Made by a program: the position numbers and the translations under genes
In this document: positions 4,701-58,533 of the stretch, piece by piece
Position numbering within the stretch: the stretch's first letter is position 1
Layout of the letters: the number at the start of each line of letters is the position of its first letter
NCBI GenBank assembly: GCA_902562835.1
Contig: CACEUX010000008.1
Span: forward strand, 3,726 to 67,725
Direction: 5' to 3'
Origin: an uncultured Fidelibacterota bacterium
Lineage (GTDB): Bacteria > Fidelibacterota > Marinisomatia > Marinisomatales > UBA1611
DNA: 64,000 nt
The notes under the pieces: model-generated
Seen by the model: the letters and a program-made list of their open reading frames with translations, nothing else
Databases searched by the model: none
Told to the model about the DNA's origin: nothing

Positions 4701-5831
4701 ATGAAAAAAACACTTTTTATTATTTTAACCACACTTTCATTTGGGCAAAGACTCGATGAAATAGATATAGCATTAAATGAGCTAGAAACAATAGTTCAAA
4801 TGGCATCACGGTCATCCCAGAAAGTATTTGTAGAAGATTTCACTGGTCTTCAGTGACCATACTGTCCCTCTGCGAGTTTCGCAATATCACAGATGCTTGA
4901 TGATTATCCAGAGACATTAATGAGCATCGAATGGCATAATTCAAGTTTCACCCCTGGAAATTCAGATTTTGATATTCCAGAATATAGTTCTAGAGCCTCT
5001 ATGTATGGAGTGGGCGGTATCCCACACACTCAGTGGAATGGCGTACAAGAAACGGTTGGAGGCTATCCAAATGGTAACTGGGAACAGTTCATAGGAACTT
5101 TCACAGCACTATACAATAATATGGTTGGGAATGATACCCCTTATGAAGTGAGTATAAATGGCTATGCTGGTTTGGAGGTAAGCTACGAAGTAGCAGTTTC
5201 AATGGATTCTGATATGAGTAGCTCTAACCAAAAAGTTGATATATTTGTAGCCGAAGATAACATATGGTCTTATTGGACAGGTGCGAGCCAGTATCATAAT
5301 GCAAGAAATGTAGCAAGGGATTGGTTAGCTACAGAGGATCTGACAATTAGCTCAGAAGGTGAATCACAAATATTTTCAGGTAGTTTTGATCTTGATGAGG
5401 ATTGGAATTCAGACAGTGTAAAGATCATTGCAATTGTTCAAAACTATTCTTCAAAACAGATCTATCAGGTCACTGCCGTAAATATAAATGATATGAATCC
5501 AGATATAGATGATGATGGTGTTTTGAATGGAGAAGACAATTGTATAGATATTTATAATCCAGGCCAGGAAGATAGTGATAGTGACCTCATAGGTGATCTT
5601 TGCGACCCTTGTGACAATTTAGTTTATATTGCTGGAAATATAAATGGTGATACAAATGATAATGGGATTCCAGTTATTGATATCATGGATGTTCTTTCTT
5701 TAGTGGATTATTTGTTGTTTGATGATTCATACGCTTGTCAAGACCCTTCAATGAATTTTAATAATGATGAATTTGTTAATGTCGTTGATGTTATAGCATT
5801 GGTCCAATACATTTTGGGCGGAAATAACTAG
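4701..5831 (+). CDS. Selenocysteine-containing secreted thioredoxin-fold protein (family A, copy 1) with C-terminal TSP3 repeats and dockerin-like module
   Basis: ATG 4701 (MKKTLFIILTTLSFGQ signal) is in frame with the listed ORF 4893..5831, with no other stop between them. The only interruption is TGA 4854-4856 inside VEDFTGLQ-U-PYC-PSASFAI, a UxxC redox motif. A cis-Pro-like GGIPHTQWNG lies downstream. The C-terminus has DIDDDGVLNGEDNC..NPGQEDSDSD..CDPCDN (TSP3) and two Asp/Asn-rich dockerin-like segments. Confidence 0.82.
4854..4883 (+). promoter_or_regulatory. UGA(Sec) plus putative bacterial SECIS hairpin (copy A1)
   Basis: The hairpin TGCGA-GTT-TCGCA (4871-4883) starts 17 nt from the U of the UGA. 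Spacing matches copies A2 and A3. The closing pair is U-A here and C-G in the other two copies, a compensatory change. Confidence 0.6.
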
Positions 5832-5843
5832 GCGAGATAGTTT

Positions 5844-6371
5844 ATGGAGAGAATACATAGATCTACTTTTTATCTCTTTATACTAACAAATTTTATATTT
5901 GCTGACAGTAGTGATATTGGAAATACCATACCAGATCTCAAGATACGATTACTTGATGGTACAACCAAAACTATACATGAACTCGTTGATGATGGTCCTC
6001 TTATGATCGATTTTTGGGCTACATGGTGTGTGCCGTGTAAAAAGCTAATGAGATACCTAGACCAGTATCATCAGGATTATTCTAAGGATGGTTTTAAGGT
6101 GCTGATGATCAATACGGATACTCCTAGATCAATGGGTAAAGTAAAGTCATATGTAAGAGCTCAGGATTATAAATTCTATATTGGAATGGATCCTAATAAA
6201 ACGATCTCAAAGAAATTAAATGGGATGGTTATGCCCACTATGATACTTGTGGATAAAGGCGGGGAAGTGAAATGGCGTCATCAAGGCTACATATCAGGCG
6301 AAGAAATTGAGGTGAACAATCAGATCAAACAACTTTTGGAGAATAATCTTGAAGAAACATTTGAAGGCTAA
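5844..6371 (+). CDS. TlpA/ResA-like periplasmic thiol-disulfide oxidoreductase (Cys form)
   Basis: 175 aa with an N-terminal signal peptide. It has the FWATWCVPCKK thioredoxin active site and MPTMILVD (cis-Pro). Size is typical of the TlpA/redoxin family. Confidence 0.85.
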   Translation: MERIHRSTFYLFILTNFIFADSSDIGNTIPDLKIRLLDGTTKTIHELVDDGPLMIDFWATWCVPCKKLMRYLDQYHQDYSKDGFKVLMINTDTPRSMGKVKSYVRAQDYKFYIGMDPNKTISKKLNGMVMPTMILVDKGGEVKWRHQGYISGEEIEVNNQIKQLLENNLEETFEG

Positions 6372-8325
6372 AATCTTAAAAGAAGCAATTGTACTTATCG
6401 TGTGTACATCATATGTATTTGCTAATCAAGTAGATATGAATGGAGCTGTGAATTCAAATTTTGGAAACAGCTACGGATTTTATGACTTCTCTGAAAATAT
6501 ACTTGATCTAAATATATTTTATAATGACCTTCAAGGTTGGATACAGTATGAATATTCAAATCCTCCTGATATTGGTTTTGGGAAAAATGATATAAGAAAA
6601 TTTAGGCTTGAATACTCAACGGGAGATTTTATCCTAAAATTGGGTGACCTCTATGAGTTCTGGGGGCGAGGTCTTCTCCTTAATCAGTTTGATGATCAGG
6701 TGACTAATTTTGATAATGGTACCAGAGGGATGTTGATCGAGTATGACAGTGGCTCTCTTTCTGCAAGTCATATGAACGGGAATTCAAGTATATGGAACAT
6801 GGGAGCAGATACAAGAACGCCGGAATACAATAATATTCATAGCATGATGGCAAATCGATTAGAGTACAACAGGGGTCTTATTACATTAGGTCTAACCCAG
6901 CTTAGGTCAAATGAGGAACATGATGTGAATTTTGGTCCATCTGTTTTTGTCAGCCATGACCTTAAAGGTGCCTATGCTACATGGGCAAGCGGGAATGCAG
7001 ATCTTTTTGTAGAATATGTAGATAAAGTGTCAACGGAAAAAGTAACTATGTTTGGCACCATACCTAATGATACTTTGCTGAAAGGGCACGGCTACTATCA
7101 AAACTTTAATTTCTATTTTGGTAATTGGGGCATCTCAACTGAATACAAGCGGTATGCTTTTGATAGAGCATATGGTGATATAACTTCTGATGATTATGGT
7201 AACCAGATAGAATACCAGCAGATGCCAACACTTGGGAAGGAACATAATTCCACGTTGCTTGGTCGGCTGACACACAATTACAACTTCAATGACGAAAGAG
7301 GGGCGCAAGTTGAGGTGAATGGATCACTTCTTGGACTATCTATAACAGCCCAATACGCACATCTCAGTCGAAATGAAACATGGCAATCAGTTGGGTCATT
7401 TGAATGGACAGATAAGGCTATTGAGGGCTTTCTACCAAGTTCAGATATATCTGCTTTACCATATTGGGAAAATTACCAGGAAGTCAGTGGGTACGCATTC
7501 AATGATAAGTTCTATTTCAAACTTGGTAGGGGCTCAAATAAAGAAGTTTTAAAGACCATACGATATTTTGAAGGTACTCAGGTTGATATTTCATCTGTAG
7601 ATACTTCATTAACATGGGTCTATGATACACTCGTATGGAATGACGAGACATATTTTGATTCAACAGAAGTCGAACTTTATGATACCAATTATACATCGCC
7701 GTTTAATGTTGAGTCCAAGTTATGGCAAGAAAGTAAAGCTTTTACCATACCTCTGGAAGTGAACTATATTTTTGATAATGGATATACGCTCGGCCTGGGT
7801 TTTCAATACCAAGAGAGAGAAAAGGTAAATAGGTCAAAGGGTAATGCGACAACATTTAATGCCAGTGACTCATCATGGACGATGTACGACCCTGATGATT
7901 ATTCAAATACATATGATGAGACCGTAAGCCAACTTGCAAATCCAGATGGCGCTGTCAAAACACAATATAATCGGCTAGTTTATCTCTCCATAAGTAAAGC
8001 TCCTAAATGGTCTTTTACCATTACCCATGATATGACTAATGCATATGAAGCAAGCTCTCCATATGACCCATACTATAATCCACTTGAAGCATTGATCTCT
8101 GGTGATCTAAAATACTTCACAGGAAAGAGGAACAATATTGAACCACCCAGCTGGATACAAAATCGTTGGGTCTCCGTGGAGTTTGCCTATAATATCACAT
8201 CATCGCAAAGACTTTCAATTATGTATGGCTCAATCCAAGGCGGACTCTTTTGCAGTAATGGTGTTTGCAGACTTATACCCCCATTTAATGATGGGGTTAA
8301 GATCAGTTACAGTGCGAGTTTCTAA
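6349..8325 (+). CDS. Putative large outer-membrane beta-barrel protein (paralog 1)
   Basis: 658 aa with a signal-like N-terminus. Aromatic/Gly-rich alternating strands run throughout and the terminal residue is Phe (..KISYSASF), an OMP signature. It overlaps the TlpA gene end by 23 nt. The start (TTG 6349 or TTG 6361) is uncertain. Confidence 0.65.
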   Translation: MKKHLKAKILKEAIVLIVCTSYVFANQVDMNGAVNSNFGNSYGFYDFSENILDLNIFYNDLQGWIQYEYSNPPDIGFGKNDIRKFRLEYSTGDFILKLGDLYEFWGRGLLLNQFDDQVTNFDNGTRGMLIEYDSGSLSASHMNGNSSIWNMGADTRTPEYNNIHSMMANRLEYNRGLITLGLTQLRSNEEHDVNFGPSVFVSHDLKGAYATWASGNADLFVEYVDKVSTEKVTMFGTIPNDTLLKGHGYYQNFNFYFGNWGISTEYKRYAFDRAYGDITSDDYGNQIEYQQMPTLGKEHNSTLLGRLTHNYNFNDERGAQVEVNGSLLGLSITAQYAHLSRNETWQSVGSFEWTDKAIEGFLPSSDISALPYWENYQEVSGYAFNDKFYFKLGRGSNKEVLKTIRYFEGTQVDISSVDTSLTWVYDTLVWNDETYFDSTEVELYDTNYTSPFNVESKLWQESKAFTIPLEVNYIFDNGYTLGLGFQYQEREKVNRSKGNATTFNASDSSWTMYDPDDYSNTYDETVSQLANPDGAVKTQYNRLVYLSISKAPKWSFTITHDMTNAYEASSPYDPYYNPLEALISGDLKYFTGKRNNIEPPSWIQNRWVSVEFAYNITSSQRLSIMYGSIQGGLFCSNGVCRLIPPFNDGVKISYSASF

Positions 8326-8399
8326 GTTTGCTCTAATGCACGAAGAATGTTAGACTCTAGAGTTGATTTTAACGAATTTTTAATTATCAAAGTAAAAAA

Positions 8400-9575
8400 A
8401 TGAAAAACCTATATATAATACTACTGATATCATTACCCTTTGCTCAGCAACTGGATCCTGTTGATATGGCCGTTGAAGAATTAAGAACTATAGTTGAAGC
8501 TGCATCAAGATCAAGTCAGCGTGTTTTTGTTGATGACTTTACAGGACTAAACTGACCATACTGTCCATCCGCGAGTTTCGCGATTTCAGAAATGTTAGAT
8601 GAGTTTCCTGGAACCCTAATCAGCACTGAGTGGCACTCAGCGGGCTATACGCCAGGAGATTCTGACTTTGAAGAGTGTTATTATTATGACAACTTTGGAG
8701 GCTGTTATGGTGCAAGAGCTAGTCTTTATGGCGTAGGAGGCATCCCACACACAGAATGGAATGGTATATATGACCTGACAGGAGGTTGGGCTAATGGTAA
8801 TTGGGAACCAGCGTATAATTATTTTATTGGGTTCTATAATGACCTGATTGGAACTGAAACCCCCTACGAGATCATTATCAATGGAATAAAAGATGGCTCA
8901 ACAGTTAATTATGAGATTACTGTTTCTATGGATGATGACTATTCTGTCCAGAACCAAAAAGTAGAAATAATAGTTGTAGAGGATAACATTATGTCATACT
9001 GGGCAGGTGCAAACCAAGACCATAATGCAAGGAATGTTGCAAGGTATTGGATAGGCACTGAAGACCTGACCATCAATTCAGCTGGGCAATCACAAACTTT
9101 TTCAGGATCATTTGAGATAGATGAAGAAGCATGGAACTCTGACAGTGTTAAAATTATTTCAATGGTTCAGAATTATGGGAATTATGAAGTATTTCAAGTT
9201 CAAGAGATAAATGTTAACGAATTTGATACGGATCAGGATGGCGTGGTAAATAATGAAGATAATTGTGAGGCAGACTATAACCCTGGGCAAGAAGATATAG
9301 ATGGAGATGGACTAGGCGATGCATGTGATCTCTGCGACAACACAAACATATACATACCTGGTAATGTCAGTGGTGATTATTGGTATTATGATACTAGTAG
9401 TCTAGAACCGACGGTAACTATTGATGTGTTTGACGTTTTAAAACTTTCGGAGATCATCGTATCAGGGGAAGAAGAGAGTTGTGGATATCAAGCCGGCGAT
9501 CTAACTGGAGATGGTGATGTTAATATAATTGATGTTATTGCACTTGCTTCGTTTATAATGGACGGCGCGTTCTAG
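8400..9575 (+). CDS. Selenocysteine-containing secreted thioredoxin-fold protein (family A, copy 2) with TSP3 and dockerin-like C-terminus
   Basis: ATG 8400 (MKNLYIILLISLPFAQQ) is in frame with ORF 8592..9575. The single in-frame TGA 8553-8555 sits in VDDFTGLN-U-PYC-PSASFAI. DTDQDGVVNNEDNC..NPGQEDIDGDGLGDACDLCDN is TSP3, and GDLTGDGDVNIIDVIALASFI is a dockerin-like repeat. Confidence 0.83.
8553..8582 (+). promoter_or_regulatory. UGA(Sec) plus putative bacterial SECIS hairpin (copy A2)
   Basis: The hairpin CGCGA-GTT-TCGCG (8570-8582) starts 17 nt from the UGA. It lies within a 36-nt block identical to copy A3. Confidence 0.6.
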
Positions 9576-9609
9576 TTATTACTTTTCAATTTGAACTAGT
9601 CATAAAAAA

Positions 9610-9636
9610 GGTGGTTGTTATAACCGCCTTTTTTTT
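9610..9636 (+). terminator. Rho-independent terminator after family A copy 2
   Basis: GGTGGTT-GTTAT-AACCGCC stem-loop followed by T8 (9629-9636). Confidence 0.7.
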
Positions 9637-9774
9637 GACTTTATCCAACGTTTTTTAATTTATTGAAAAATATAATTTTTTATTTTAAAGCTTATAATAT
9701 TAACTATTGAGTTTTATATGTGTTTTCAACTATTATTGTGTTAGTCTGAATTGAGAACTACCAAGAGGTTAATC

Positions 9775-10980
9775 ATGAAAAAAGCTCGTTCAATAGCACT
9801 TTCATTTATTACAATCACATTTATTTCTACATTCCTTCCTGCACAGGCACTTGATCACAGGCACATGGCGTTCGAGAATCTACGCATGTCTGTTATGAAT
9901 GCTTCTCAAAGTGGCCAAAATGTTTATGTTGAAGACTTTACAGGTCTTAACTGACCATACTGTCCATCCGCGAGTTTCGCGATTGATACACTTCTAAAAG
10001 AATTTCCAGGTACACTTCACTCAATTGAATGGCACAGTCCAGGTTACACTCCAGATTCTTCTGACTTTTGTCTCCAAACAGAGTTTTACATGAGAGCTGG
10101 TCTATACGGAGTTAGTGCTTACCCTACCACTGTATGGAATGGTGTGCATAATCAGGTGGGTGGAGCCAGTGGTGGGAACTGGGAATCCATATATCCTGGA
10201 TATTTAGAGTTATATCATGAGCATTATGACCTGCCATCTCAATTTCGTCTTGGCATATCAGGTGAATATGAGCCTGGAGATAATGAGGTCAATTTTAGTG
10301 TAGAGATACTAATTGACAACGATATTGATACTACTGTAAACATTGAGAATACCTATGTTGAAGTATTCGCTGTTGAAGATAATATTTATTCCTTCTGGGG
10401 AAGTGTTGGGCAGTGGCATAACGCCAGGAATGTAGCAAGAAGGTACGTCACAAAAAGTGAAGCCAATAAGAATCCAGTTTCGGTAAGCGAAGCGGGACAG
10501 TCAGAGATCTTTGAGCACAATTTACTCTTGTCAGATGCCTGGGAGCATTCAAATGTGAAAATAGTTGCTATTGTGCAACAATTTCAAGGTGAAGGATCTG
10601 ACCATCCCATTACTCAAGCTCAAACAAGAAATATAAATGATCTAGATCCTGATCCGGATGGTGATGAATTGACCTATCTTTATGATAACTGTCACTATGT
10701 ATACAATCCTGGGCAAGAAGATGCTGATGGAGACGAATATGGAGACGCCTGTGACGCATGTAATGGACTTGTAAATATTCAAGGGAATGTAGACCTTGAT
10801 GCTCATGGAGAAAATTTTACTCCGATCATTGGTGTGGCTGATGTTTTAGCATTATCTGATCTTCTTGATGGTAGTGGTCTTCCTCCAAATGATTGCCAGT
10901 CTATAGATATGCTTGAAGATGGAACGATAAATAACTTCGACCTGATAGTATTGGTAGATGTGGTAATGGCAGGAGGCTAG
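9775..10980 (+). CDS. Selenocysteine-containing secreted thioredoxin-fold protein (family A, copy 3) with TSP3 and dockerin-like C-terminus
   Basis: ATG 9775 is preceded by AAGAGG (SD-like) and opens a signal peptide, MKKARSIALSFITITFISTFLPAQA. ORF 9751..9954 and ORF 10090..10980 share a frame and are joined by stop-free sequence after TGA 9952-9954, in VEDFTGLN-U-PYC-PSASFAI. SAYPTTVWNG is cis-Pro-like. DPDPDGDE..NPGQEDADGDEYGDACDACNG is TSP3. Confidence 0.83.
9952..9981 (+). promoter_or_regulatory. UGA(Sec) plus putative bacterial SECIS hairpin (copy A3)
   Basis: The hairpin CGCGA-GTT-TCGCG (9969-9981) starts 17 nt from the UGA. Confidence 0.6.
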
Positions 10981-11058
10981 TTATTAGTTTTTTTAAATAT
11001 CTTAAAAGTATAGTTGAATTGCTATTCCCTAAATCAATAGGTTAGGTATCTTTAAATC

Positions 11059-12003
11059 ATGAAAGTTATTTTGTTCTATTTCCTTCGTTTACTTTTAATT
11101 ACTTCTTTTGCAGTAATGCCTATTCAGGCTCAACTCCAAGTTGGAGATATTTCCCCTGATTTTAGTGGTCCAATGTGTATGAATGGAGAAGATGTTAACC
11201 CTGATATTGTAACAGGTGATTACTGGAGTTTATTCGAGGAAGGAGATGGAAAGGTTACATGGATAAACTTATTCACTTCATGGTGACCATCCTGTCAGGT
11301 GGAGGCTCCACAAACAGAAAGTATATGGCAGGACTTCTTAGCAGAAAATGAAAATTATCTTAATATAGTTGCCAATGGCTTTGACTGGACATCTTACACG
11401 TGTGCAGGGTGGGCCTCAGCATTTGGAATTACATATCCTATGATAGATGGTGGATCAAGTGGTGGGGAAGCTTGGAATCTTTTTGGAGATGGTTATATTC
11501 CTCACAATGTTGTTCTAGATCATAACCACGAGGTGCTTTACACATCCTCAGGATATAGTGAAGGTGCGATCATGGCTGCTATAGAACTTGGATTATCATA
11601 TGTTCCAAGAGATGAAGATGGAGATGGGATCATGGATAGTACTGATAATTGTATTGATGTTCCTAATGATGACCAATTAGACCATGATTTGGATGGTCTT
11701 GGCGATGCTTGTGACCTTTGCAACAACTTAGAAATATATGTTACTGGTAATATAGATGGGTCTGTTGGTATGACCGATCATAATCCAACCATAGATCTGT
11801 TTGATATACTTCGTTTGTCCGATATTGTCCTCTTGGGTGTAGATGAGGGCTGTGGCTATGAGATCAGTGATATTAGAGAAGATGGAGTTATAAACATTCT
11901 TGATATTATTACATTGGTACAGTACGTCCTCTATGGTGAATTGCCTGATGAGAATACAATCGCTATACCACCTAACGCATATCTCTTATCTGAAAATAAT
12001 TGA
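11059..12003 (+). CDS. Selenocysteine-containing TlpA-like thioredoxin-fold secreted protein (family B, copy 1) with TSP3 and dockerin-like C-terminus
   Basis: ORF 11059..11286 (signal peptide, ..WINLFTSW) and ORF 11299..12003 are in the same frame. They are separated only by TGA 11284-11286, which gives W-U-PSC-QVEAP. This aligns with WCxPC..E.P of TlpA-type redoxins. YIPHNVVLD is cis-Pro-like. DEDGDGIMDSTDNC..DHDLDGLGDACDLCNN is TSP3, and a dockerin-like tail follows. Confidence 0.82.
11284..11311 (+). promoter_or_regulatory. UGA(Sec) plus putative SECIS hairpin (copy B1)
   Basis: The hairpin GTGGA-GGC-TCCAC (11299-11311) starts 15 nt from the UGA. Confidence 0.55.
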
Positions 12004-12138
12004 CCCACATTTTTGGTAGACTCAATCAGCTAATGATAGAGAAGTCATTATTTATCAAGTAAATTGTAAAATAAACAGCTACCTTTACTTAAATTAGGCG
12101 ACGAACATTAGTTGCCTTTTGTTTAATGATAAAAGCTC

Positions 12139-15100
12139 ATGCTGAATAATAAGAAACATCTGTACAAAAGCATCATCACCCTAATGGCCTTTTCTTGTTT
12201 TATTTTTGGTCAAACCGATTTCTCATTCAAAAATATATCAGTCAAGGATGGGCTTGCTGAGAGTACTGTTAAAGTAATTTATGAAGACCAGAATGGTTTC
12301 ATATACTTTGGCACAGAAAACGGCCTCGATGTTTTTGATGGCTATGAGTTTACAAATTATCAAATGAACTCATTCAATGAATTATCAATTCTTGGCAATA
12401 AGATCTCAACCATTTATGAAGATGCCAGTCATATGATCTGGGTTGGCACTGAATTAGGCGTCAGTAAGTTTGATCCATCGAAAAGAGAATTTTCAAGGCC
12501 TATTAAACTTGATGGGGCAGACCTAATTAATTCTGAAACTATTATTGACGACGGTCAAGGTAACATTTATATCAAATTGAGAGATGATGGTTTAGTTTAT
12601 CAGTACAATGGTGTTGATAGTGTATTGACATGTTTTAATTGTTCAGATGAATCAGTCATAAATGATGAGATGGTTACCGTTTTAAGTAAAGATTCTAAGG
12701 GTACTATCTTAATTGGAACCAATACTGGCCTACGCTACTATGATATCAAGTCAAATCGAATTATCAAAGTAGGTGTTGAAGCTGGATTAGATGATATATC
12801 TGTGAATGCCATAGAGCGCGGAGCCAAAAATGATATTTGGGTTGGAACCTCAAATGGTCTATTCAAATTAAATGGTGGTCTAGGTGGTAGTATAGATGTT
12901 TATAGAAAAAATGAACAAAGTACATCAATAGTTTCAAATTATGTTAAAGATCTGGATTGGGATGTAGAGAGAAATGAACTATGGATAGCAACCCAAAATG
13001 GTATTTCTCGTTACATACCTTCAGAGTCAAGTTTTTTTAATATCCAGATGACACCATATGCAGACAGTATAATAGAAAATGATATATCTGAAATACTTAT
13101 TGCAGTTAAATCAGGTCGTTTATGGTATACTACTGAAAATCATTCTGGGCTGAATTGTTTATCGGTGGGAGAGGATTTCGATTCTGAAGGTCCACCTCCG
13201 GCAAACCATTTTGAGCATGACCCCATTGATAAAGGATCCATAGCGGATAATGAGATCAATGATTTTATTGAAGACAAAGCTGGTCATGTTTGGATAGGTA
13301 CGGGACAAAATGGTATCAGTTTCTTTTCCTATGTTAAACCAAAGTTTGTGAACCATAGATATGATCAGGAGAATGAATGGGGTTTAAAGAGTGACAAGAT
13401 ATATTCTATCACTACGCAGAGTGACGGCATGATGTGGGTAGCTACTGGTTTTGGTCTTGAAAAAATTTCATATGATGGTATCAGGGACCAAGAGTATGAA
13501 AAGTCTCTCCTAAATGTCAACTATATAATTGACCTTGAGATCATAAATGATGTGATGTTGTGGGTAGCGACAGATCAAGGCATACTAAAGATCGATACTT
13601 GGAACGATTATGATGCTGAAAATATTATTAGGTTTTCGGAATCAGATAGCCTTCCGCCATCAAGACGAATATCAAATAATCTAGTTCATGATATTTTGCC
13701 CATTGAAGATAAGATCTGGGTTGCCACAGGATCTGGTATGGTGATAATTGATACAACAACTAATAGTGTCACAGATTTTAATTCAGATCTGATCGCAAGA
13801 GTTATTTCAAAGGACTCTAGTGGTAATATTTGGCTTGGAACGGAAATGGATGGACTTTTTAAGATTCCATACGAACTATTGGGCGATATTGAAAAGGGAG
13901 AAGATTTTGAGTTAGAGGGGCATATCTTTGATAAGGCTTTTACTAGTGGTATTTCTTCTTCCCAGATAACTTGTATTACGGAAGATAAAAATGGAGTGAT
14001 CTGGGTTGGTACTAACGGAGGCCTTAATAAGTATATCAGTGAAAAAGATAATTTTGAGCATTATTTTGTTCAAGATGGTCTGCCGAGTAACTATATAACA
14101 GGTGTGCTTGTTGATAAAACTAATGGGTTGTGGATCAGTTCAAAAAAAGGAATTTCATTTTATGACCAGGTTAATTCAACATTCACCAATTACAGTCTTA
14201 CAGATGGTATAGGTAATATTGATTTTCATAGGCATAGCTATGATCAAAGTGCAGATGGAAGTATATTTTTTGGTGGGCCAATGGGCATAACATTGGTCAA
14301 TCCGGCAGAATTACAATTCAATGATTATCAACCACCCTGTTTGATTACTAGACTTAAGAAAACCTATTTTGATGATTCAGTAAAAGAAATATACTCATTC
14401 GATGATTCCGATGGCTCCAATGGGGGAGAGAGTATTTCAACCATAGTGATCGATCATAGAGTAAAATCATTTAGTATTGATTTTGTGGCTCTCAACTATC
14501 ATCAAACTGTAAAAAACCAATACAGGTATAAGTTAGAGCCATTTGATAGGGACTGGGTATCATCTCAAGGGTTACGTTTTGCATCGTATAATAATCTTGG
14601 AAGAAGTACTTATAATTTTATGGTTCAAGGCTCTAACGATGATGGGGTATGGTCCGCACCTGCAAAGTTAGATATCAAATTTACGCCACATCCTCTTTTA
14701 AGTATTTGGGCTTTCTCTTTCTATTCAGTCCTTTTGATCATTGGTATATTTATTTTCATGCGTCACCGTATGCATAAACAAAAATATCAACTAGAGGAAG
14801 AACGACGCATTCAAGAGCTCGAGCAAGCGAGAGATTTTCAAATGTCCTTGATACCGCAAAGCCCACCAGATCACCCTGACTATGATATTGCACTGCATAT
14901 GAAAACATCAACGGAAGTCGGTGGGGATTATTATGACTTTTTTCCACAAGAAGATGGCTCTATGTATGTTGTGTGTGGTGACGCAACTGGCCATGGTTTA
15001 AATGCTGGAATGATGGTCTCTATCACAAAAGCAGGACTCTATGGGTCGGACTTTGACACACCTTCAAGTACAACCACACGTCTGAATAGAACTATTAAGG

Positions 15101-15519
15101 CAATCGATCTTGGTACAACTCGGATGTCTTTAAATATGGCAAAATTTAATAACGGGTCTTTTGATTTCACATCAGCAGGAATGCCCCCGGCATATCTATA
15201 TAAACACTCTACAAAAGATGTAAATGAAATACTTGTTCCGGGGCTTCCATTGGGTTCAATGAAAAAAGCAGATTTTGATTTACATTCTTTTGATCTTGAT
15301 ACAAACGATGCTCTTGTTTTGATCTCTGATGGACTTCCAGAGTGTGTAAACCATGAGGGTGAGATGCTAGACTATGAGCCGGTTAAGGATTGTATTACAG
15401 CAAATGGAAATAAAACAGCACAGGGTATTATTGATTCTCTGATCGATCTTGGCGATGACTGGATGTCGGGTTTAATGAATGATGATGATATTACTCTTGT
15501 GGTAATAAAGAAAAAGTAA
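12139..15519 (+). CDS. Sensor protein: periplasmic two-component-regulator beta-propeller repeats, one TM segment, cytoplasmic PP2C/SpoIIE-type phosphatase
   Basis: 1126 aa. Many repeats of the ..G.IW.GT..GL..(F/Y).. type are typical of regulator propeller domains. A hydrophobic segment (WAFSFYSVLLIIGIFIF) follows. The C-terminus has GGDYYDFF...GDATGHGLNAGMM...DDITLVVI, matching SpoIIE/PP2C motifs. Confidence 0.8.
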   Translation: MLNNKKHLYKSIITLMAFSCFIFGQTDFSFKNISVKDGLAESTVKVIYEDQNGFIYFGTENGLDVFDGYEFTNYQMNSFNELSILGNKISTIYEDASHMIWVGTELGVSKFDPSKREFSRPIKLDGADLINSETIIDDGQGNIYIKLRDDGLVYQYNGVDSVLTCFNCSDESVINDEMVTVLSKDSKGTILIGTNTGLRYYDIKSNRIIKVGVEAGLDDISVNAIERGAKNDIWVGTSNGLFKLNGGLGGSIDVYRKNEQSTSIVSNYVKDLDWDVERNELWIATQNGISRYIPSESSFFNIQMTPYADSIIENDISEILIAVKSGRLWYTTENHSGLNCLSVGEDFDSEGPPPANHFEHDPIDKGSIADNEINDFIEDKAGHVWIGTGQNGISFFSYVKPKFVNHRYDQENEWGLKSDKIYSITTQSDGMMWVATGFGLEKISYDGIRDQEYEKSLLNVNYIIDLEIINDVMLWVATDQGILKIDTWNDYDAENIIRFSESDSLPPSRRISNNLVHDILPIEDKIWVATGSGMVIIDTTTNSVTDFNSDLIARVISKDSSGNIWLGTEMDGLFKIPYELLGDIEKGEDFELEGHIFDKAFTSGISSSQITCITEDKNGVIWVGTNGGLNKYISEKDNFEHYFVQDGLPSNYITGVLVDKTNGLWISSKKGISFYDQVNSTFTNYSLTDGIGNIDFHRHSYDQSADGSIFFGGPMGITLVNPAELQFNDYQPPCLITRLKKTYFDDSVKEIYSFDDSDGSNGGESISTIVIDHRVKSFSIDFVALNYHQTVKNQYRYKLEPFDRDWVSSQGLRFASYNNLGRSTYNFMVQGSNDDGVWSAPAKLDIKFTPHPLLSIWAFSFYSVLLIIGIFIFMRHRMHKQKYQLEEERRIQELEQARDFQMSLIPQSPPDHPDYDIALHMKTSTEVGGDYYDFFPQEDGSMYVVCGDATGHGLNAGMMVSITKAGLYGSDFDTPSSTTTRLNRTIKAIDLGTTRMSLNMAKFNNGSFDFTSAGMPPAYLYKHSTKDVNEILVPGLPLGSMKKADFDLHSFDLDTNDALVLISDGLPECVNHEGEMLDYEPVKDCITANGNKTAQGIIDSLIDLGDDWMSGLMNDDDITLVVIKKK

Positions 15520-15570
15520 TTTATTCTAAGACATAGGTAAGATTGATTGTGAAAAGGCTAATAATAATTA

Positions 15571-16107
15571 TTGCGTTGGTGTCCTCGTTTTTTATCAGCT
15601 CAAGATAAGGTACCGAACATAAGACTTAAAATGATAAACGGTAAATACGCAAAATTATACGATTTTCTCAAAGAAGGACCTATGATAATTGATTTCTGGG
15701 CAACCTGGTGCGAGCCATGCAAAAAGCAAATGCGCTATTTAGACCTTTTCTATAATCATTTTAAACCATCTGGGTTTAATGTCCTCACGGTTAATACTGA
15801 TTCACCAAAAAGTATGAGCAAGGTAAAGCCTTATATTCGTACAAAAGGTTTTGAATTCAATGTTGCCGTAGATCCAAATAGCCAGGTGAAAAAGAGACTC
15901 AAAGTACAGGAAATGCCTACAACGATAATTATTGATCAGGATGGTTCAATATTGTATCGTCACAAGGGCTATGTTCCAGGCGATGAAGTTGGTATTCTAA
16001 AGGCTGTAACTGATATCCTTGATAAAAAAGGTATAGAATATCTACCTCTAGACCTCGATAAAGTCCAAGCAGTAAAGAAACAAGAGAAACTTAATATTGA
16101 TTTTTAG
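15571..16107 (+). CDS. TlpA-like thiol-disulfide oxidoreductase (Cys form), apparently frameshifted from its signal peptide
   Basis: FWATWCEPCKKQM active site and MPTTIIID cis-Pro. It is a close paralog of 19382..19960. As listed it has no signal peptide. A signal peptide (GTG 15549, MKRLIIIIALVSSF) lies in the neighbouring frame, across a T6 run at 15588-15593. Confidence 0.75.
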   Translation: MRWCPRFLSAQDKVPNIRLKMINGKYAKLYDFLKEGPMIIDFWATWCEPCKKQMRYLDLFYNHFKPSGFNVLTVNTDSPKSMSKVKPYIRTKGFEFNVAVDPNSQVKKRLKVQEMPTTIIIDQDGSILYRHKGYVPGDEVGILKAVTDILDKKGIEYLPLDLDKVQAVKKQEKLNIDF

Positions 16108-18385
16108 AATATACAATTTGACCAAGCTCCTTAATAGTACGCTTTTCTGTTCTGGAATCTTATTTACAACATTAGTCAATGCACAAATAAGTACAGGAGG
16201 AGATGCTTCACTTAAATTTGGTGAGAGTAAGAATAATTTTAATTATTCTGAGGTCTTATTAAATATGAATGTCAGCAATGATTACCTAACAACATGGTTT
16301 CAGTTTGAATATAGTAACCCTCCTGAAATTGGCTTAACTAAAAATGGCTTAAGAAAGTTTAGGGTAGATTATGTTGGAGATAATATTGAACTTTCTGTCG
16401 GAGACATTTACAAAATATGGGGAAGGGGACTTATCCTAAATCAATTTGATGACCAAGATGTAGACTTAGATAATGGATATAGGGGCTTAAGTTTTGGACT
16501 GATAGAAAATGATTATTCATTAAATCTTATTGCAGGTAATTCAAATATATCTAACATTACTTCTGATTATATGTATGACCTCGATCTTGAAGTTCGAAAG
16601 CCAAATTATTTTCCAAAGCATTCCTTATTTGGTGGCGATTTTGAGTTGTTCCGTGGTCCGGTATCTTTTGCAACATCTTTTTTGCAAAGTCGTGAGAGCC
16701 ATCCTATCAATGCTGGTATGCAACCAGATAGCATCGATGTTATTCACCGAATACATGGGCTAAGAAGTGGGTATGAAGGAAACTCATTAAGTGGGTATGT
16801 AGAATTGGCAAATAAATTAACTCTTCTACCCACATCTATGGGAAGTGATGATCATGAAGATTTTAGACCTTATAATGGAACCTCTTTATTTGCAAATCTG
16901 AATTACTATTTTAACATGTCACCCTTTGATGGTTGGTCACTCATGATGGAGTATAAGAATTACAATACTACAAAGATCAATCCAGACCAAAGGAATAATT
17001 ATGTAAATAATTATGACATGAATTTGATCTTCACTCAACCACCTACAGTGATTCGTGAGCATAGTAGTGTATTGCTAGCAAGGCTGATTCCGCAGGTCAA
17101 TTTCAATGACGAGGTGGGCTACCAACTCTCACTCGTAGGCCCAGTTAGTAATCTAGGGTATTTTACTCTTAATTATCAGGCTGCCAGCAGGACCAGCTTA
17201 TGGGCAAAAGAATTTCCAGATACTGTAAACGCGGCATTTAGTTCAAAATGGAGTGGCGATAGTTCTATAACTTATTTACCATATGATGATGATGTCACGT
17301 TTCCTTATAATGAGTTGTATGTTGAAATGGAAGGGTATATCAATAAGATACGATATCAACTTGGTTTAGGCTTTACAAATAAAATATCTGAATACCATTC
17401 TCTCTATAGTAGTGCTCAAAATAATAGCTGGGACATAGGTGAGTTATTTACAGATCTTAATAATAGTGGTACATGGGATCCGGGTGAACCTTATGATGAT
17501 CTATATAGTATTGTAAATGAGAGATTAGAGAATAAATATACCAATGCTGTCACAGTACCAACGTTGTTTAATTATAATCTGGGAAATGGATTGAGCATCG
17601 ATCTCAAATATGAGTACCAAAGGTTGAAAAGTGGTGTTAATTATAATTTCACATTGTCATCGGATGAGTACTTCGAAGATCTTGATGGAGATGGCTTATG
17701 GGATATGGCAGAGTTGTTTACTGATGATAATGAAAATGGTGTGTGGGATGATGCTGAAGAAACTTGGTATGATAATTGGTTGAATGGTTGGATTTCTGAT
17801 GACCTTTTACCAAATTATGACACGAATGGCAATGGTGAATATGATATTGGAGAATATTTTTCTGATGCAGATGGTGATGGTATTTGGGACCCCGCTGAAG
17901 CTTTCACTGACCTTGATGGTGATGGAATATGGGATGATGGAGAGGTCTTGGACGATATGAATAATGATGGTGTATGGACACCAAAAGGAACTTACGTAGA
18001 TAGTACAAGATCTAACTTTTATGCCTATGATGGCGATAGCGATGAAAAGCTAGCTCAAGAATTTCAAAATAATCATATGTTAACAATTGGTCTTGGAAAG
18101 TCACCTTATTGGTCTTTATCATTGACCATAGAATCAAGTTCAGCGTACGAATATGGACCTCAACCTTTAAGCATCTCTAATCCACTTGAAGATCTACTTG
18201 GCAACATTATGGATATGGAAAACAAATGGGTGGCAATCGACCTTATGATAAATATCAACTCAAATACACGTCTTGATCTTATGTATGGGACTTTAAGAGG
18301 TGGTGTCATTTGTAGTAATGGTATTTGTAGATATGTTGAACCATTTGATGACGGATTCAAGCTAAGTTTGACCTCAGTATTCTGA
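16097..18385 (+). CDS. Putative large outer-membrane beta-barrel protein (paralog 2) with Asp-rich repeat insertion
   Basis: 762 aa. It shares N-terminal (WFQFEYSNPPEIG...LILNQFDDQ) and C-terminal (GG.ICSNGICRYVEPFDDGFKLSLTSVF) blocks with 6349..8325 and ends in Phe. It overlaps the upstream TlpA-like gene by 11 nt. Confidence 0.65.
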   Translation: MIFRIYNLTKLLNSTLFCSGILFTTLVNAQISTGGDASLKFGESKNNFNYSEVLLNMNVSNDYLTTWFQFEYSNPPEIGLTKNGLRKFRVDYVGDNIELSVGDIYKIWGRGLILNQFDDQDVDLDNGYRGLSFGLIENDYSLNLIAGNSNISNITSDYMYDLDLEVRKPNYFPKHSLFGGDFELFRGPVSFATSFLQSRESHPINAGMQPDSIDVIHRIHGLRSGYEGNSLSGYVELANKLTLLPTSMGSDDHEDFRPYNGTSLFANLNYYFNMSPFDGWSLMMEYKNYNTTKINPDQRNNYVNNYDMNLIFTQPPTVIREHSSVLLARLIPQVNFNDEVGYQLSLVGPVSNLGYFTLNYQAASRTSLWAKEFPDTVNAAFSSKWSGDSSITYLPYDDDVTFPYNELYVEMEGYINKIRYQLGLGFTNKISEYHSLYSSAQNNSWDIGELFTDLNNSGTWDPGEPYDDLYSIVNERLENKYTNAVTVPTLFNYNLGNGLSIDLKYEYQRLKSGVNYNFTLSSDEYFEDLDGDGLWDMAELFTDDNENGVWDDAEETWYDNWLNGWISDDLLPNYDTNGNGEYDIGEYFSDADGDGIWDPAEAFTDLDGDGIWDDGEVLDDMNNDGVWTPKGTYVDSTRSNFYAYDGDSDEKLAQEFQNNHMLTIGLGKSPYWSLSLTIESSSAYEYGPQPLSISNPLEDLLGNIMDMENKWVAIDLMININSNTRLDLMYGTLRGGVICSNGICRYVEPFDDGFKLSLTSVF

Positions 18386-18507
18386 TTTAATCAAAATAAT
18401 AAGAATTATTTCTAAAAAGAATTTTGCATTAATATTCGTATGAAAAATTTTATTAATGTAGCTAAATTTCATTCGCAAATCATAACCCAAAATAAACTCT
18501 CAGAAAT

Positions 18508-19374
18508 ATGAAGCAGCTCATTTCAATATTGATAATACCATTCTTTCTTAGTATTTCACCACTTGATGGTCAAGATGTTTACATGGAAGATTTTAGTGTA
18601 CCTATATGTGAAAACGGTAATGGAGAAGATACTCTACACTTTTTTGAAGCATATAATGGTGCATATAACGATTGTGGTTACAAGGTGATATTTGCCACTC
18701 TTTTTACCTCCTGGTGAGGATACTGCTGGGGGGAGGCTCCCCTCACACAGCAGTTATACGACACATATAATGACCAAGGCCTTGAAGTGGTTGCATTTGG
18801 AGCTGATTGGGGTGAGCCATATACTTGCCAACAGTGGATGAACTCATTTGATATTACATATCCCATTGCTGACTTTGAGACTGGCATGCCTAATTGGTAT
18901 CAAGAGGATATACCTATCAATCTACAGATGCATCAAATAGGTTGGGGCCTACCTTACAATATTATTATAGACCATAATATGGAGGTCATCTGGGGGGGCG
19001 TAAATGACATTGCTGAGGAAGAAGTATGGGAAGAGGCTGTTACAATGATAGAAAGTGCTCTGAATCATTTGAATGCGGAGGCACTCGTTGATAATGATGG
19101 GGATGGTATAGCTAATGAATGTGATGATTGCCCTGACTCACATCTATATACCTTAGGAAATTTTGATTTTTCAGAAGAAATCGTAGTTGATGGTCTTAAC
19201 TTTGTATATGCCCCTAGCATAGAAGTTTATGATCTACTTTTCCTTTCAGATCTAGTTAGCAGTGGTGATGAAATTTCACCATGTTATATTGAGGCGAGTG
19301 ATTTTACTGGTGATAATGCTCTGGATTTAATTGATATAATGGCTTTAGCTAGCTATATAGTAGAGGGTAATTAG
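18508..19374 (+). CDS. Selenocysteine-containing TlpA-like thioredoxin-fold secreted protein (family B, copy 2)
   Basis: ORF 18508..18717 (signal peptide, ..ATLFTSW) and ORF 18787..19374 are in frame. TGA 18715-18717 gives W-U-GYC-WGEAP, with stop-free sequence between the two ORFs. GLPYNIIID is cis-Pro-like. DNDGDGIANECDDCPD is a TSP3-like repeat, followed by a dockerin-like tail. Confidence 0.8.
18715..18744 (+). promoter_or_regulatory. UGA(Sec) plus putative SECIS hairpin (copy B2)
   Basis: GGGGA-GGC-TCCCC core (18730-18742), extendable to 18728-18744 with one G-U pair. The offset from the UGA is 15 nt, as in copy B1. Confidence 0.55.
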
Positions 19375-19381
19375 AAAAATC

Positions 19382-19960
19382 ATGACCATTAAGGCTCGAT
19401 ATGATATGCTTAGAAAGATATTTTTTTTTACAATGCTCTTTACATTGGCATATTCGCAAGGCAAGGTTCCAAATGTACGTCTAAAAATGTTAGATGGTAG
19501 CTCAGCCAAACTTTATGATTACCTCAAAGATGGGCCTATGATCATTGACTTTTGGGCAACTTGGTGTGAGCCATGTAAAAAACAGATGCATCATCTAAAT
19601 AAATTTCACCAGCATTTCAAAGATGCTGGATTTAAGGTTCTTACTGTTAATACTGATACTCCAAAAAGTATGGGCAAGGTGAAATCATATATAAGGTCAA
19701 AGAAATTCAAATTTTTTGTAGCTGTAGATCCTAATGGTCAAGTAAAGAAAAAATTAAAAGCAGAGCTCATGCCGACTACGATCTTAGTTGATACGGATGG
19801 CTCGGTGCTTTATCGTCATCAGGGGTATTACCCAGGAGATGAAGATAAAATATTAAAACATATCACGGACTATTTTGATGCAGCAGAAATAAGCTATGAC
19901 CCATACGATACTGAAAAGAAAAAACAGACAGCTAAAAAGCAAGTAGATATAGATTTTTAG
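19382..19960 (+). CDS. TlpA-like periplasmic thiol-disulfide oxidoreductase (Cys form)
   Basis: 192 aa with signal peptide (IFFFTMLFTLAYSQG), FWATWCEPCKKQM and MPTTILVD. It starts 8 nt after the family B Sec gene. Confidence 0.85.
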   Translation: MTIKARYDMLRKIFFFTMLFTLAYSQGKVPNVRLKMLDGSSAKLYDYLKDGPMIIDFWATWCEPCKKQMHHLNKFHQHFKDAGFKVLTVNTDTPKSMGKVKSYIRSKKFKFFVAVDPNGQVKKKLKAELMPTTILVDTDGSVLYRHQGYYPGDEDKILKHITDYFDAAEISYDPYDTEKKKQTAKKQVDIDF

Positions 19961-20040
19961 ACGAATATATCGCTGTTTAGATCCCTACATATAGATTTCA
20001 AATAAATTAAATATTTAATGATGCCCATTATTTTTAATAT

Positions 20041-20114
20041 GCGCCCGTAGCTCAACTGGATAGAGTGTCTGGCTACGGACCAGAAGGTTGGGGGTTCGAA
20101 TCCTCCCGGGCGTA
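20041..20114 (+). tRNA. tRNA-Arg (anticodon ACG)
   Basis: 74-nt cloverleaf folded by hand. Acceptor GCGCCCG/CGGGCGU (G1-U72 wobble), D-arm GCUC..GAGU, anticodon stem UCUGG/CCAGA with loop CUACGGA, T-arm GGGGG-UUCGAAU-CCUCC. CCA is not encoded. Confidence 0.88.
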
Positions 20115-20124
20115 CTTATCGACA

Positions 20125-20152
20125 AACCCTTCTTTTTAGAAGGGTTTTTTTG
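20125..20152 (+). terminator. Rho-independent terminator after tRNA-Arg
   Basis: AACCCTTC-TTTTTA-GAAGGGTT (8-bp stem) running into a T-run (20145-20151). Confidence 0.8.
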
Positions 20153-20193
20153 TTTGATGGAAGTTTCTATCACAATAATATCTGATTAATAAA

Positions 20194-21474: not shown

Positions 21475-21617
21475 ATTGATTGTTTTTATTTCATGTCTAT
21501 CAGCTTAAATGATATTTTTCAAAATTAGGTGTAAAAGCTTTTCAGGCCTTTTTAAAAAGGGTTTTTTATTAGAATTTTGTATATATAAACATTAGATTAT
21601 CGTCAGGAATTCAATCC

Positions 21618-22409
21618 GTGAAAATTAAACTAATCATCACATTATTTTTAATGACGCTTTCTAGTGCACAAGTTTATGATGTGGGCGATTTTGCACCATC
21701 CGATTTTGGACTTCCTTGGTGTGGTAATAACCCAGCTGGTGATGATAGTTTATTTTTGAGTGCATATAATGGAGCTATCAATGAAACAGGCCGTCCCTAT
21801 GTCATATGGTTGACTGCTTTTACAACTTGGTGAGGATATTGTTTGACGGAGGCTCCTGTCACTCAAGAATACTTTGATCTCTATGCTGATTCAGGATTAG
21901 TTGTGATTGGAATGGGAGGCGACTGGGGCCAACCTTACACCTGTGAAGGGTGGGTAGACAACTTCGGTTTAGGTTACCCTATAATATCTGATGAGGATAC
22001 CTACAATGAATATGAATATGGAGGTTTAGGAACTAATTTATTTACAGATACTTGGGTTCCATATAATATGATAATAGATCATACAATGGAGATAATCTAT
22101 TCGTCATCTGATTATTATGGTCAGGAAGGATATGACCTAATTTTCGATAAGCTCTTTGGCGCCTTAAATAAATGTACTCTATGCACCTGCTCAGAAGTTC
22201 TTGGAGACATTGACCATACATATACCATTGATAATGAACCTATCATTAATATAATGGATTTGTTAAGGCTCTCGGATCTTATTACAACGGATACGCGAAT
22301 GAACCATTGCGAGAGAGGGCAGGGAGATATTACTGGAGATGGTGTTTTGAATACGATCGATCTTTTTGCTTTTGCAACCATGATCTCAGAAGGTGTCTTT
22401 GATAACTAA
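21618..22409 (+). CDS. Selenocysteine-containing TlpA-like thioredoxin-fold secreted protein (family B, copy 3; dockerin-like tail only)
   Basis: ORF 21618..21833 (GTG start, signal peptide, ..LTAFTTW) and ORF 21843..22409 are in frame. TGA 21831-21833 gives W-U-GYC-LTEAP. WVPYNMIID is cis-Pro-like. The C-terminus GDITGDGVLNTIDLFAFATMI is dockerin-like. I see no TSP3 repeat. Confidence 0.78.
21831..21860 (+). promoter_or_regulatory. UGA(Sec) plus putative SECIS hairpin (copy B3)
   Basis: GGA-GGC-TCC core with a possible bulged U and outer GAC/GTC pairs (21845-21860). It is weaker than copies B1 and B2. Confidence 0.4.
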
Positions 22410-52461: not shown

Positions 52462-52467
52462 GCCTTC

Positions 52468-56870: not shown

Positions 56871-56879
56871 GGAATAAAT

Positions 56880-58524: not shown

Positions 58525-58533
58525 TTATTAATT

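Follow-up and report, generated by a model that had tools for sequence, protein, structure and literature searches.

Redoxin genes coupled to DUF6029 outer-membrane barrels among selenoprotein genes in Fidelibacterota: a candidate envelope thiol/selenol redox module

The stretch of DNA analyzed here (the window) comprises 64,000 nucleotides of an uncultured Fidelibacterota bacterium (UBA1611; GenBank assembly GCA_902562835.1, contig CACEUX010000008.1, positions 3,726 to 67,725), the proteins of which have their nearest relatives in the SAR406 clade, among sequences bearing the labels Candidatus Marinimicrobia, Neomarinimicrobiota or Fidelibacterota. The window carries two paralogous gene pairs, each encoding a TlpA/ResA-like redoxin and a large outer-membrane beta-barrel of the DUF6029 family (Table 1), in a region of 36-40% GC content where the genes form one long run on the + strand, and six genes for exported selenoproteins surround these pairs within 18 kb (4701-22409). 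The two pairs are best explained as copies of a module of the Fibrobacterota-Chlorobiota-Bacteroidota (FCB) group that is represented in the Marinimicrobia/Fidelibacterota, the Ignavibacteria and the Bacteroidota. Its core is a soluble exported redoxin with a CxPC active site and a barrel that has about 26 strands and no plug, the two being encoded by overlapping or abutting genes, and this core is usually joined by one to several surface-sorted thioredoxin-fold proteins with a CxxC or UxxC motif (U, selenocysteine). The initial annotation had described a duplicated two-gene module; the duplication of the pair stands, but its size does not, since the module usually consists of redoxin, barrel and surface thioredoxin-fold protein and, in marine lineages, is also preceded by the gene here termed P439.

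The redoxin-barrel pairs

Domain families were scanned for in the window open reading frames (ORFs) between positions 1 and 59606. The three redoxins of the window (TlpA1, TlpA2 and TlpA3) all match the Pfam Redoxin/AhpC-TSA families with E-values of 1e-19 to 1e-25 (TlpA1, Redoxin 4e-21 and AhpC-TSA 1e-19; TlpA2, AhpC-TSA 6e-24), with the active-site motif WCVPC in TlpA1 and WCEPC in both TlpA2 and TlpA3. Their top NCBIfam similarities are to ResA, TlpA, StoA and DsbE, and the equivalog cut-offs are not reached for ResA (81-98 vs 170 bits), TlpA (53-63 vs 230) or DsbE (41-49 vs 123). The redoxins are thus family-level relatives of ResA, TlpA and DsbE rather than orthologues. With the pathways that lead from CcdA/DsbD to TlpA, ResA and CcmG (DsbE), they share the Redoxin/AhpC-TSA fold, the WCxPC motif and an extracytoplasmic location. 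Canonical TlpA, ResA and CcmG, however, are anchored in the inner membrane, whereas the leaders of the window redoxins resemble, as judged by eye, cleavable signal peptides (…FA/DS, …YS/QG and …SA/QD, the slash marking the cleavage site), the apparent site in TlpA1 being …FIFA/DSS. Further differences from the canonical proteins are the outer-membrane barrel partner and the lack of neighbours involved in cytochrome c maturation or of Sco and Cox neighbours: no Ccm, Res, Sco or Cox genes were found among the scanned window ORFs or in ten annotated contexts. In line with the remark in the initial annotation that such a pair is unusual for the classical TlpA roles, genes for cytochromes or Cu centres are missing from its surroundings. 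The CxxC motif is kept in every readable partner redoxin across the loci described below.

The reading frame of TlpA2 deserves separate mention. Its signal peptide, starting at GTG 15549 and reading MKRLIIIIALVSSFFISSR up to a stop codon, is not in frame with the mature part of the protein, for which the ORF caller chose TTG 15571 as start. The frame is shifted by one extra T in a run of six (~15590-15595), and deletion of one T yields a continuous MKRL...SFLSA/QDKVPN that matches the orthologue in a related locus (L062, 5410-5480), where it is in frame. This shift stems either from an assembly error at the homopolymer or from a recent mutation that inactivated the gene.

Both barrels are clear members of Pfam DUF6029 (PF19494; 81.1 bits, 9e-23, for barrel 1 and 82.9 bits, 2.5e-23, for barrel 2, against a gathering score of 27), a family without assigned function, and PF19494 was precomputed on 120 out of 120 homologues, among the matches listed. 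The view that such barrels are known only as a domain of unknown function was therefore correct, and DUF6029 did not turn out to be a well-characterized porin family devoid of redoxin linkage. Identity between the two barrels is 30% from end to end (BLASTP 4e-59 plus 2e-24), and both BLASTP and alignment confirm the N- and C-terminal blocks reported for them: QYEYSNPP, LNQFDDQ, a C-terminal block and a terminal Phe, the latter present in 267 of 334 family members. Their leaders consist of a hydrophobic N-terminus ending in FA/NQ or NA/QI. Barrel 1 is longer than typical DUF6029 members (530-580 aa), and barrel 2 carries an insert of 104 aa in a long loop, with six D-x-[DN]-x-[DN]-G-x-[WY]-[DT] motifs resembling calcium sites, which has no Pfam match and is absent from barrel 1. 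The positions and gene overlaps given in the initial annotation were reproduced. Barrel 1 overlaps its redoxin by 23 nt if started at TTG 6349 and by 11 nt if started at the in-frame TTG 6361, the 654-aa form being the public gene-call version (P0003), and the 11-nt overlap of barrel 2 with TlpA2 equals that of the first pair with the TTG 6361 start.

A confident AlphaFold2 model of barrel 1, computed from a 54-sequence alignment, is all-beta with about 26 strands (predicted local distance difference test score, pLDDT, 84.8; predicted template-modelling score 0.78). In this model, turns of 2-4 residues strictly alternate with longer loops, as in the classic outer-membrane topology, and the strands begin at residue 28, right after the leader, leaving no plug or periplasmic domain. 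The membrane topology used here is deduced solely from these alternating turn and loop lengths. The nearest solved folds identified by Foldseek in the PDB are the TonB-dependent transporters Cir, BtuB and ZnuD (E ~1e-10 to 1e-11), with template-modelling (TM) scores of ~0.4 and root-mean-square deviations of 12-15 A, followed at lower scores by AlgE and OccK; LptD, MtrB and Wzi are outside the top 50, and a sequence-profile search of the PDB with a family alignment (A3) gave no match. The fold class is clear, although no close solved relative exists, and no function can be assigned by fold because the similarity is only that of generic large barrels. Membership of the TonB-dependent transporters was rejected: the barrels have no Plug, TonB_dep_Rec or other Pfam match to that family and no TonB box, and they present about 26 instead of 22 strands besides the low TM score. 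The best-conserved motifs, QYEYSNPP (loop L2), WGRGLxLNQFDDQ (L3), PTxxKEHxSTLLxR...NFNDE (L7) and the last loop (L13), fall in long, nominally extracellular loops of the model, a placement suggesting that they line or fill the barrel lumen. None of 386 family proteins is a fusion of DUF6029 to a TlpA, Omp28 or P439 domain.

The pairing of redoxin and barrel was evaluated in three sets of loci. When one genome of each GTDB species was scanned for barrel motifs, the 76 loci obtained all came from Marinimicrobia-type metagenome-assembled genomes. Enough upstream sequence is available for 72 of them, and in 68 of these the barrel has a TlpA-like gene on its own strand directly upstream. The four exceptions have a selenoprotein gene upstream instead, and at least one of them (L011) has a TlpA-like gene elsewhere in the locus. 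A metagenome scan with an alignment (A4) of a second, divergent barrel subfamily, characterized by the C-terminal sequence GSQKGGLVCANGICADQPGFEDG, returned 80 marine loci, with a redoxin directly upstream in all 58 that were testable. Lastly, look-ups of exact proteins from other subfamilies and phyla found an adjacent upstream redoxin in nine out of ten cases. These include barrels labelled Ignavibacteria or Bacteroidota (P0329, P0316, P0322, P0345, P0287 and P0338), bearing out the suggestion in the initial annotation that Bacteroidota relatives lie beside redoxin genes, and likewise members of three further subfamilies (P0188, P0246 and P0509). At their most divergent, the barrels of the loci counted share ~25% identity, and three or more phylum-level labels are represented. 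The adjacency of redoxin and barrel is far beyond chance, and chance adjacency is ruled out by these counts. Since the distance from the redoxin stop codon to the first possible barrel start lies mostly between -38 and +31 nt, with many values of -4, -11 and 0, translational coupling is the rule.

The pairing also tends to follow the paralogue type. A TlpA1-type redoxin accompanies 49 of 57 barrel-1-type loci, the remaining eight having a TlpA3-type redoxin, and a TlpA2/3-type redoxin accompanies eight of 11 barrel-2-type loci, the remaining three having a TlpA1-type redoxin. Both modules occur on one contig in related species (L002 with L068, and L069 with L062), implying that the duplication is old and has been maintained.

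The most striking feature of the barrel is a cysteine hairpin with the signature GGxxC-x2-G-x-C, derived here, which immediately precedes the last barrel strand (flanking DSSP strands 632-636 and 639-643 in barrel 1) and belongs to a family-wide C-terminal GGxxCxxGxC...F pattern that both window barrels share. The CxxGxC motif is present in 332 of 334 full-length DUF6029 members, 278 of which have exactly two cysteines after residue 30, and the cysteine pair is invariant in all four alignments made (A1-A4). In the mature forms of barrel 1 and barrel 2, the hairpin residues are the only cysteines.

Thioredoxin-fold proteins around the pairs

The six exported proteins that surround the window pairs all have signal peptides and, in read-through translations, an in-frame UGA within a thioredoxin-type motif. 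Three of them are Omp28-related, with FTGL(Q/N)-U-PYC, and three are TlpA/peroxiredoxin (Prx)-like, with FT(S/T)W-U-xxC. The two scanned against NCBIfam NF045500, selenoproteins a and b, score 474 and 395 bits, respectively, against a cut-off of 200. The Omp28-type selenoproteins end in thrombospondin type-3 (TSP3) repeats (E 2e-13 for the C-terminus of selenoprotein a) and a dockerin-like C-terminus, and similar dockerin-like tails are found in the others; no cohesin-like partner for these tails was identified. The N-terminal domain of selenoprotein a gave sub-threshold matches only, to a thioredoxin (1FO5, E 0.01) and to HBP35 (5Y1A, E ~1).

Outside the Marinimicrobia, the gene 3' of the barrel encodes an Omp28-like or thioredoxin-like protein with the cysteine version of the motif (KVLxExFTNxxCxxC). 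Selenocysteine and cysteine alternate between loci: U is used in all 82 motifs counted in Marinimicrobia genome loci, and C in all 11 counted in other FCB loci. The pair therefore does occur without selenocysteine neighbours, a situation that the initial annotation had proposed to look for, the neighbouring proteins of relatives carrying CxxC. The sorting signals vary by lineage as well. A type IX secretion system (T9SS) C-terminal domain is found on the downstream thioredoxin-fold partner in L080, L165 (twice), L166 and L168, a lipoprotein signal followed by CESND in L077 and L081, with a similar arrangement in L167, and TSP3 repeats plus dockerin-like tails in the window, the redoxin-barrel core being unchanged in all three cases. 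In the second marine subfamily, the barrel is followed by SATW-U-GTC-type selenoproteins, or their cysteine versions, with typical T9SS C-terminal domains. Two loci of interest in this respect (L098, 5724-9677, and L126, 6145-9172) encode proteins of ~500 aa with SA(T/S)W-U-xxC or its cysteine version and T9SS-like C-termini (…YPNPFNP…LLIK), which, from their sequences, would be selenoproteins secreted by the T9SS.

Table 1. Features of the region around the two redoxin-barrel pairs (window coordinates).
Feature	Position	Strand	Remarks
P439	3346-4665	+	exported, 439 aa; conserved; opens the module in its marine version
Omp28-related selenoprotein a	4701-5831	+	signal peptide, FTGLQ-U-PYC, TGA 4854-4856, TSP3 repeats, dockerin-like tail
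TlpA/ResA-like redoxin 1 (TlpA1)	5844-6371	+	175 aa; WCVPC at 6024-6038
DUF6029 barrel 1	6349-8325	+	658 aa (start TTG 6349) or 654 aa (start TTG 6361)
Barrel 1 Cys hairpin GGLFC-SNGV-C	8239-8268	+	C635/C640; motif position
Omp28-related selenoprotein b	8400-9575	+	TGA 8553-8555; NF045500 395 bits
Terminator-like hairpin after selenoprotein b	9604-9634		14-bp stem, then T-run
Exported Omp28-type UxxC selenoprotein	9775-10980	+	TGA 9952-9954
Exported TlpA/Prx-type selenoprotein	11059-12003	+	FTSW-U-PSC, TGA 11284-11286
TlpA/ResA-like redoxin 2 (TlpA2)	15549-16107	+	ORF 15571-16107; WCEPC at 15706-15720
DUF6029 barrel 2	16097-18385	+	762 aa; Cys hairpin GGVIC-SNGI-C (C739/C744) at 18299-18328
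Barrel 2 loop insert, 104 aa	17672-17983		residues 526-629; six calcium-site-like motifs
Exported TlpA/Prx-type selenoprotein e	18508-19374	+	FTSW-U-GYC, TGA 18715-18717, dockerin-like tail
TlpA/ResA-like redoxin 3 (TlpA3)	19382-19960	+	without barrel partner; Pfam Redoxin 3e-25
tRNA-Arg(ACG)	20041-20115		after TlpA3
Terminator-like hairpin after tRNA-Arg	20124-20147		10-bp stem
Exported TlpA/Prx-type selenoprotein f	21651-22409	+	FTTW-U-GYC, TGA 21831-21833

A thiol/selenol redox module and competing explanations

Because the redoxin is consistently coupled to a barrel whose sole cysteines are an invariant C-x4-C pair, a functional link of some kind between the two is hard to avoid. In broad terms, it is very probable that the redoxin, the barrel cysteine pair and the surface thioredoxin-fold proteins act together in a conserved envelope thiol/selenol-redox module. 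Among more specific readings we favour one that makes the barrel a connection between the reductase of the periplasm and oxidoreductases at the surface, and we would assign this reading a probability of slightly less than 0.4. A protein of the CcdA/DsbD type, none of which is seen in the window, would reduce the redoxin at the inner membrane. The redoxin would then bind to, or enter, the periplasmic mouth of the barrel cognate to it, plugging it much as LptE does LptD or MtrA does MtrB. Reducing equivalents would then move by thiol-disulfide exchange, probably through the barrel cysteine hairpin, to surface-exposed (seleno)proteins of the Omp28 or TlpA/Prx type, which in turn would act on extracellular substrates. 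In this explicit form, a relay across the outer membrane through a plug-and-barrel complex and the cysteine hairpin is possible, if on balance doubtful; we infer that a physical complex forms, that electrons flow in this direction and that the Marinimicrobia proteins are located at the surface. The earlier proposal that electrons or substrates cross the outer membrane to reach tethered selenoproteins is consistent with the evidence, given the surface-sorting signals, the invariant barrel cysteine pair and TlpA proteins that appear soluble rather than membrane-anchored.

Known systems offer partial parallels. In both MtrCAB and LptD/LptE, an outer-membrane barrel of ~26 strands is encoded together with a periplasmic partner, and the Mtr system also has a surface redox protein. 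Barrels of 26 strands house partners of ~17-20 kDa, namely LptE in LptD and MtrA in MtrB, and LptD depends on thiol oxidoreductases. The DUF6029 pair resembles these systems in its ~26-strand barrel and periplasmic partner, and Mtr provides a precedent for electron transfer through a barrel. The pair nonetheless has no sequence relation or specific structural relation to them and no haems, so that thiol/selenol chemistry would have to replace haem hopping, and the likeness would be a functional one only. Membership of the MtrAB-like porin-cytochrome conduits was likewise rejected, the resemblance being architectural: the partner redoxin has no CxxCH, let alone a multihaem arrangement, and consists of a thioredoxin fold with a single CxPC. 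For the surface end of the module, a precedent is available in HBP35 of P. gingivalis, a T9SS-sorted, surface-attached thioredoxin with an insulin-reductase activity that needs its CxxC motif (PMC2907840). The window neighbours share with HBP35 and Omp28 the Omp28 domain (PF11551, NF045500) and an N-terminal thioredoxin motif of the FTxxxCxYCP type. Unlike HBP35, they use UxxC and TSP3/dockerin-like tails instead of a T9SS C-terminal domain, and the match to 5Y1A mentioned above is non-significant.

Several observations weigh against the proposed link to the surface. By strand parity in the model, the cysteine hairpin would lie in the last long loop, nominally extracellular, and a periplasmic redoxin could then reach it only through the lumen or before the barrel is inserted. 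Contact between redoxin and barrel is something we infer, we assume that the dockerin-tailed proteins of the Marinimicrobia are exposed on the surface, and to our knowledge no thiol relay across the outer membrane has been described. In addition, the locus counts are phylogenetically non-independent, a very divergent family member (P0253, in L169) has no adjacent redoxin, and six loci (L083, L047, L050, L054, L059 and L060) present the pair without an adjacent thioredoxin-fold partner.

This last group of loci counts in favour of a reading in which the redoxin is a dedicated folding catalyst, be it reductase, isomerase or oxidase, for the C-x4-C disulfide of the barrel, much as LptD depends on Dsb enzymes, with the barrel channelling something unrelated to thiol chemistry. 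The translational coupling of the redoxin to a barrel whose only cysteines are the invariant pair, and the tendency of the pairs to be paralogue-specific, also agree with such self-maturation. The proposal is weakened, however, by the fact that two cysteines four residues apart cannot mis-pair, which should make a private catalyst needless, and by its neglect of the surface thioredoxin-fold (seleno)protein neighbourhood that recurs across phyla; catalytic helpers, moreover, are rarely held in coupled 1:1 pairs for each paralogue. We consider it quite unlikely. A different role for the same components would be the biogenesis of the cargo itself, the barrel serving the Omp28-like and thioredoxin-like surface proteins as an outer-membrane adaptor, anchor or translocation partner specific to this cargo, in the manner of the PorP/SprF-type barrels encoded beside T9SS cargo or of Slam, and the redoxin keeping the CxxC/UxxC motif of the cargo reduced, or the cargo unfolded, in transit. 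Sorted thioredoxin-fold cargo does adjoin the pair in most loci, the orphan TlpA3 lies immediately 3' of selenoprotein e with no barrel, T9SS cargo is encoded in the window genome, and the selenoproteins nearby might have their TSP3/dockerin-like tails bound by the calcium-site-like insert of barrel 2. Yet three unrelated sorting routes are combined with one constant core, which argues that the barrel is not simply an exporter, and the coupling of redoxin and barrel is tighter and more universal than the adjacency of barrel and cargo. The barrel cysteine pair would here be merely structural, leaving it unexplained why the invariant residues of the barrel include its sole cysteines, and we regard cargo biogenesis as unlikely too.

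A further scheme would operate in the inward direction. In a redox-assisted import system, the surface thioredoxin-fold protein would act as a lid or receptor, similar to SusD on SusC, capturing disulfide-bonded or oxidized substrates such as peptides, cystine or sulfur and selenium species, the barrel would pass them inward and the periplasmic redoxin would resolve the mixed disulfide or reduce the substrate. The DUF6029 barrel is large and plug-less, its nearest Foldseek matches are 22-strand transporters, a surface lipoprotein or other partner is encoded alongside as in SusCD systems, and large T9SS-sorted secreted proteins, one of them with an M6-peptidase domain, are encoded nearby in the window and in relatives. 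Against this, there is neither a TonB box nor a plug domain nor an energizing component, the conserved neighbourhood holds no inner-membrane transporter and no substrate can be named from sequence. We consider import decidedly improbable. Hardly credible, finally, is a polysaccharide-export porin, with DUF6029 as a Wzi-like barrel and the N-terminal domain of P439 as a counterpart of PelC, the periplasmic ring under the PelB porin. This idea draws on the only published mention of DUF6029 that we found, an HHpred resemblance to the Wzi barrel (PMC9603273), on the Foldseek match of P439 to PelC and on the presence of AlgE among the weaker matches of the barrel. Wzi, however, is not among the top Foldseek matches and AlgE ranks 24th with a TM score of 0.31, the PelC/TolB-N fold is a generic periplasmic module, and neither the redoxin nor the cysteine pair would be explained. 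Neither the window nor the ten annotated contexts contain genes of the outer-membrane polysaccharide export (OPX)/Wza, polysaccharide co-polymerase (PCP), glycosyltransferase or Pel kinds. As there is no Alg synteny or specific structural match either, membership of the Wzi/PelB/AlgE porins was rejected.

Extracytoplasmic thiol-redox pathways are thought to stop in the periplasm, and the electron supply of surface thioredoxins such as HBP35 and the Omp28 family is unexplained; we know of no electron donor described for HBP35. A surface-linking module of the kind favoured here represents a concrete and testable candidate for this missing link. The new element would be the extension of an extracytoplasmic thiol-redox pathway by a dedicated outer-membrane component, and the searchable literature contains no description of redoxin-DUF6029 linkage, of the invariant cysteine hairpin or of a three-part module with surface thioredoxin-fold proteins. 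Should the relay across the outer membrane be true, it would constitute a categorically new outer-membrane electron route, the thiol counterpart of the porin-cytochrome conduits, and would account for the recycling of HBP35 and other surface thioredoxins. A Pfam family of unknown function also gains a functional context. For SAR406, an abundant ocean clade, a duplicated module and six exported selenoproteins within 18 kb point to extracellular thiol/selenol chemistry, an example of its possible ecological role being the attack on disulfide-rich organic matter.

P439, transcription units and other neighbouring genes

P439 has no Pfam match and no sequence match in the PDB, and the Joint Genome Institute (JGI) labels it 'TolB-like protein'. 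Its AlphaFold2 model (pLDDT 64 overall and ~80 for residues 27-150) is poor beyond the N-terminal domain and contains a disordered or coiled linker at 158-234, and Foldseek relates the N-terminal domain to PelC and to the TolB N-domain (E ~1e-5), indicating a PelC/TolB-N/CsgG/LpoB-like fold. The redoxin is preceded by a P439 homologue in most of the Marinimicrobia loci, with identities as low as 36%, in the upstream regions of the second barrel subfamily (L085-L164) at ~20% identity, and also in L167 (2152-3456). The gene order glutamyl-tRNA synthetase, glutaminyl-tRNA synthetase, P439, redoxin and barrel is kept even in this last, distant subfamily.

The strongest terminator-like hairpins, which were the only ones considered, suggest two transcription units, as consensus matches. 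The first would run from P439 through selenoprotein b, with no terminator-like hairpin inside, and end at 9604-9634, and the second would include TlpA2, barrel 2, selenoprotein e, TlpA3 and tRNA-Arg and end at 20124-20147; the tRNA and the redox genes may share a transcript. A promoter scan, with 104 matches vs 83 expected, gave no usable signal.

Directly upstream of the second pair (12139-15519) is a gene for a protein of 1126 aa in which a Reg_prop/Y_Y_Y sensor is fused to a SpoIIE-type PP2C phosphatase, and a Reg_prop/Y_Y_Y histidine kinase adjoins the module in the unrelated locus L165 (7917-9731); these Reg_prop/Y_Y_Y proteins are possibly dedicated regulators. In two Ignavibacteria-type loci (L077, 3301-4332, and L081, 3402-4433), a lone gene similar to NADH dehydrogenase subunit H (PF00146) lies immediately 5' of the redoxin. 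Elsewhere in the window, T9SS C-terminal sorting domains are borne by three large proteins, one of 4306 aa with Big_13 repeats (23434-36354), one of 893 aa with a weak DUF1565 match (44403-47084) and one of 1325 aa that is M6-peptidase-like (47940-51917), from which it follows that this genome encodes T9SS-type cargo. The segment from 52048 to 59109 holds a cluster unrelated to the module and similar to those of type IV pili and type II secretion systems (T2SS), with genes for a pilin-like protein whose N-terminus bears a methylation motif, a T2SSE ATPase, PilM, PilN and PilO.

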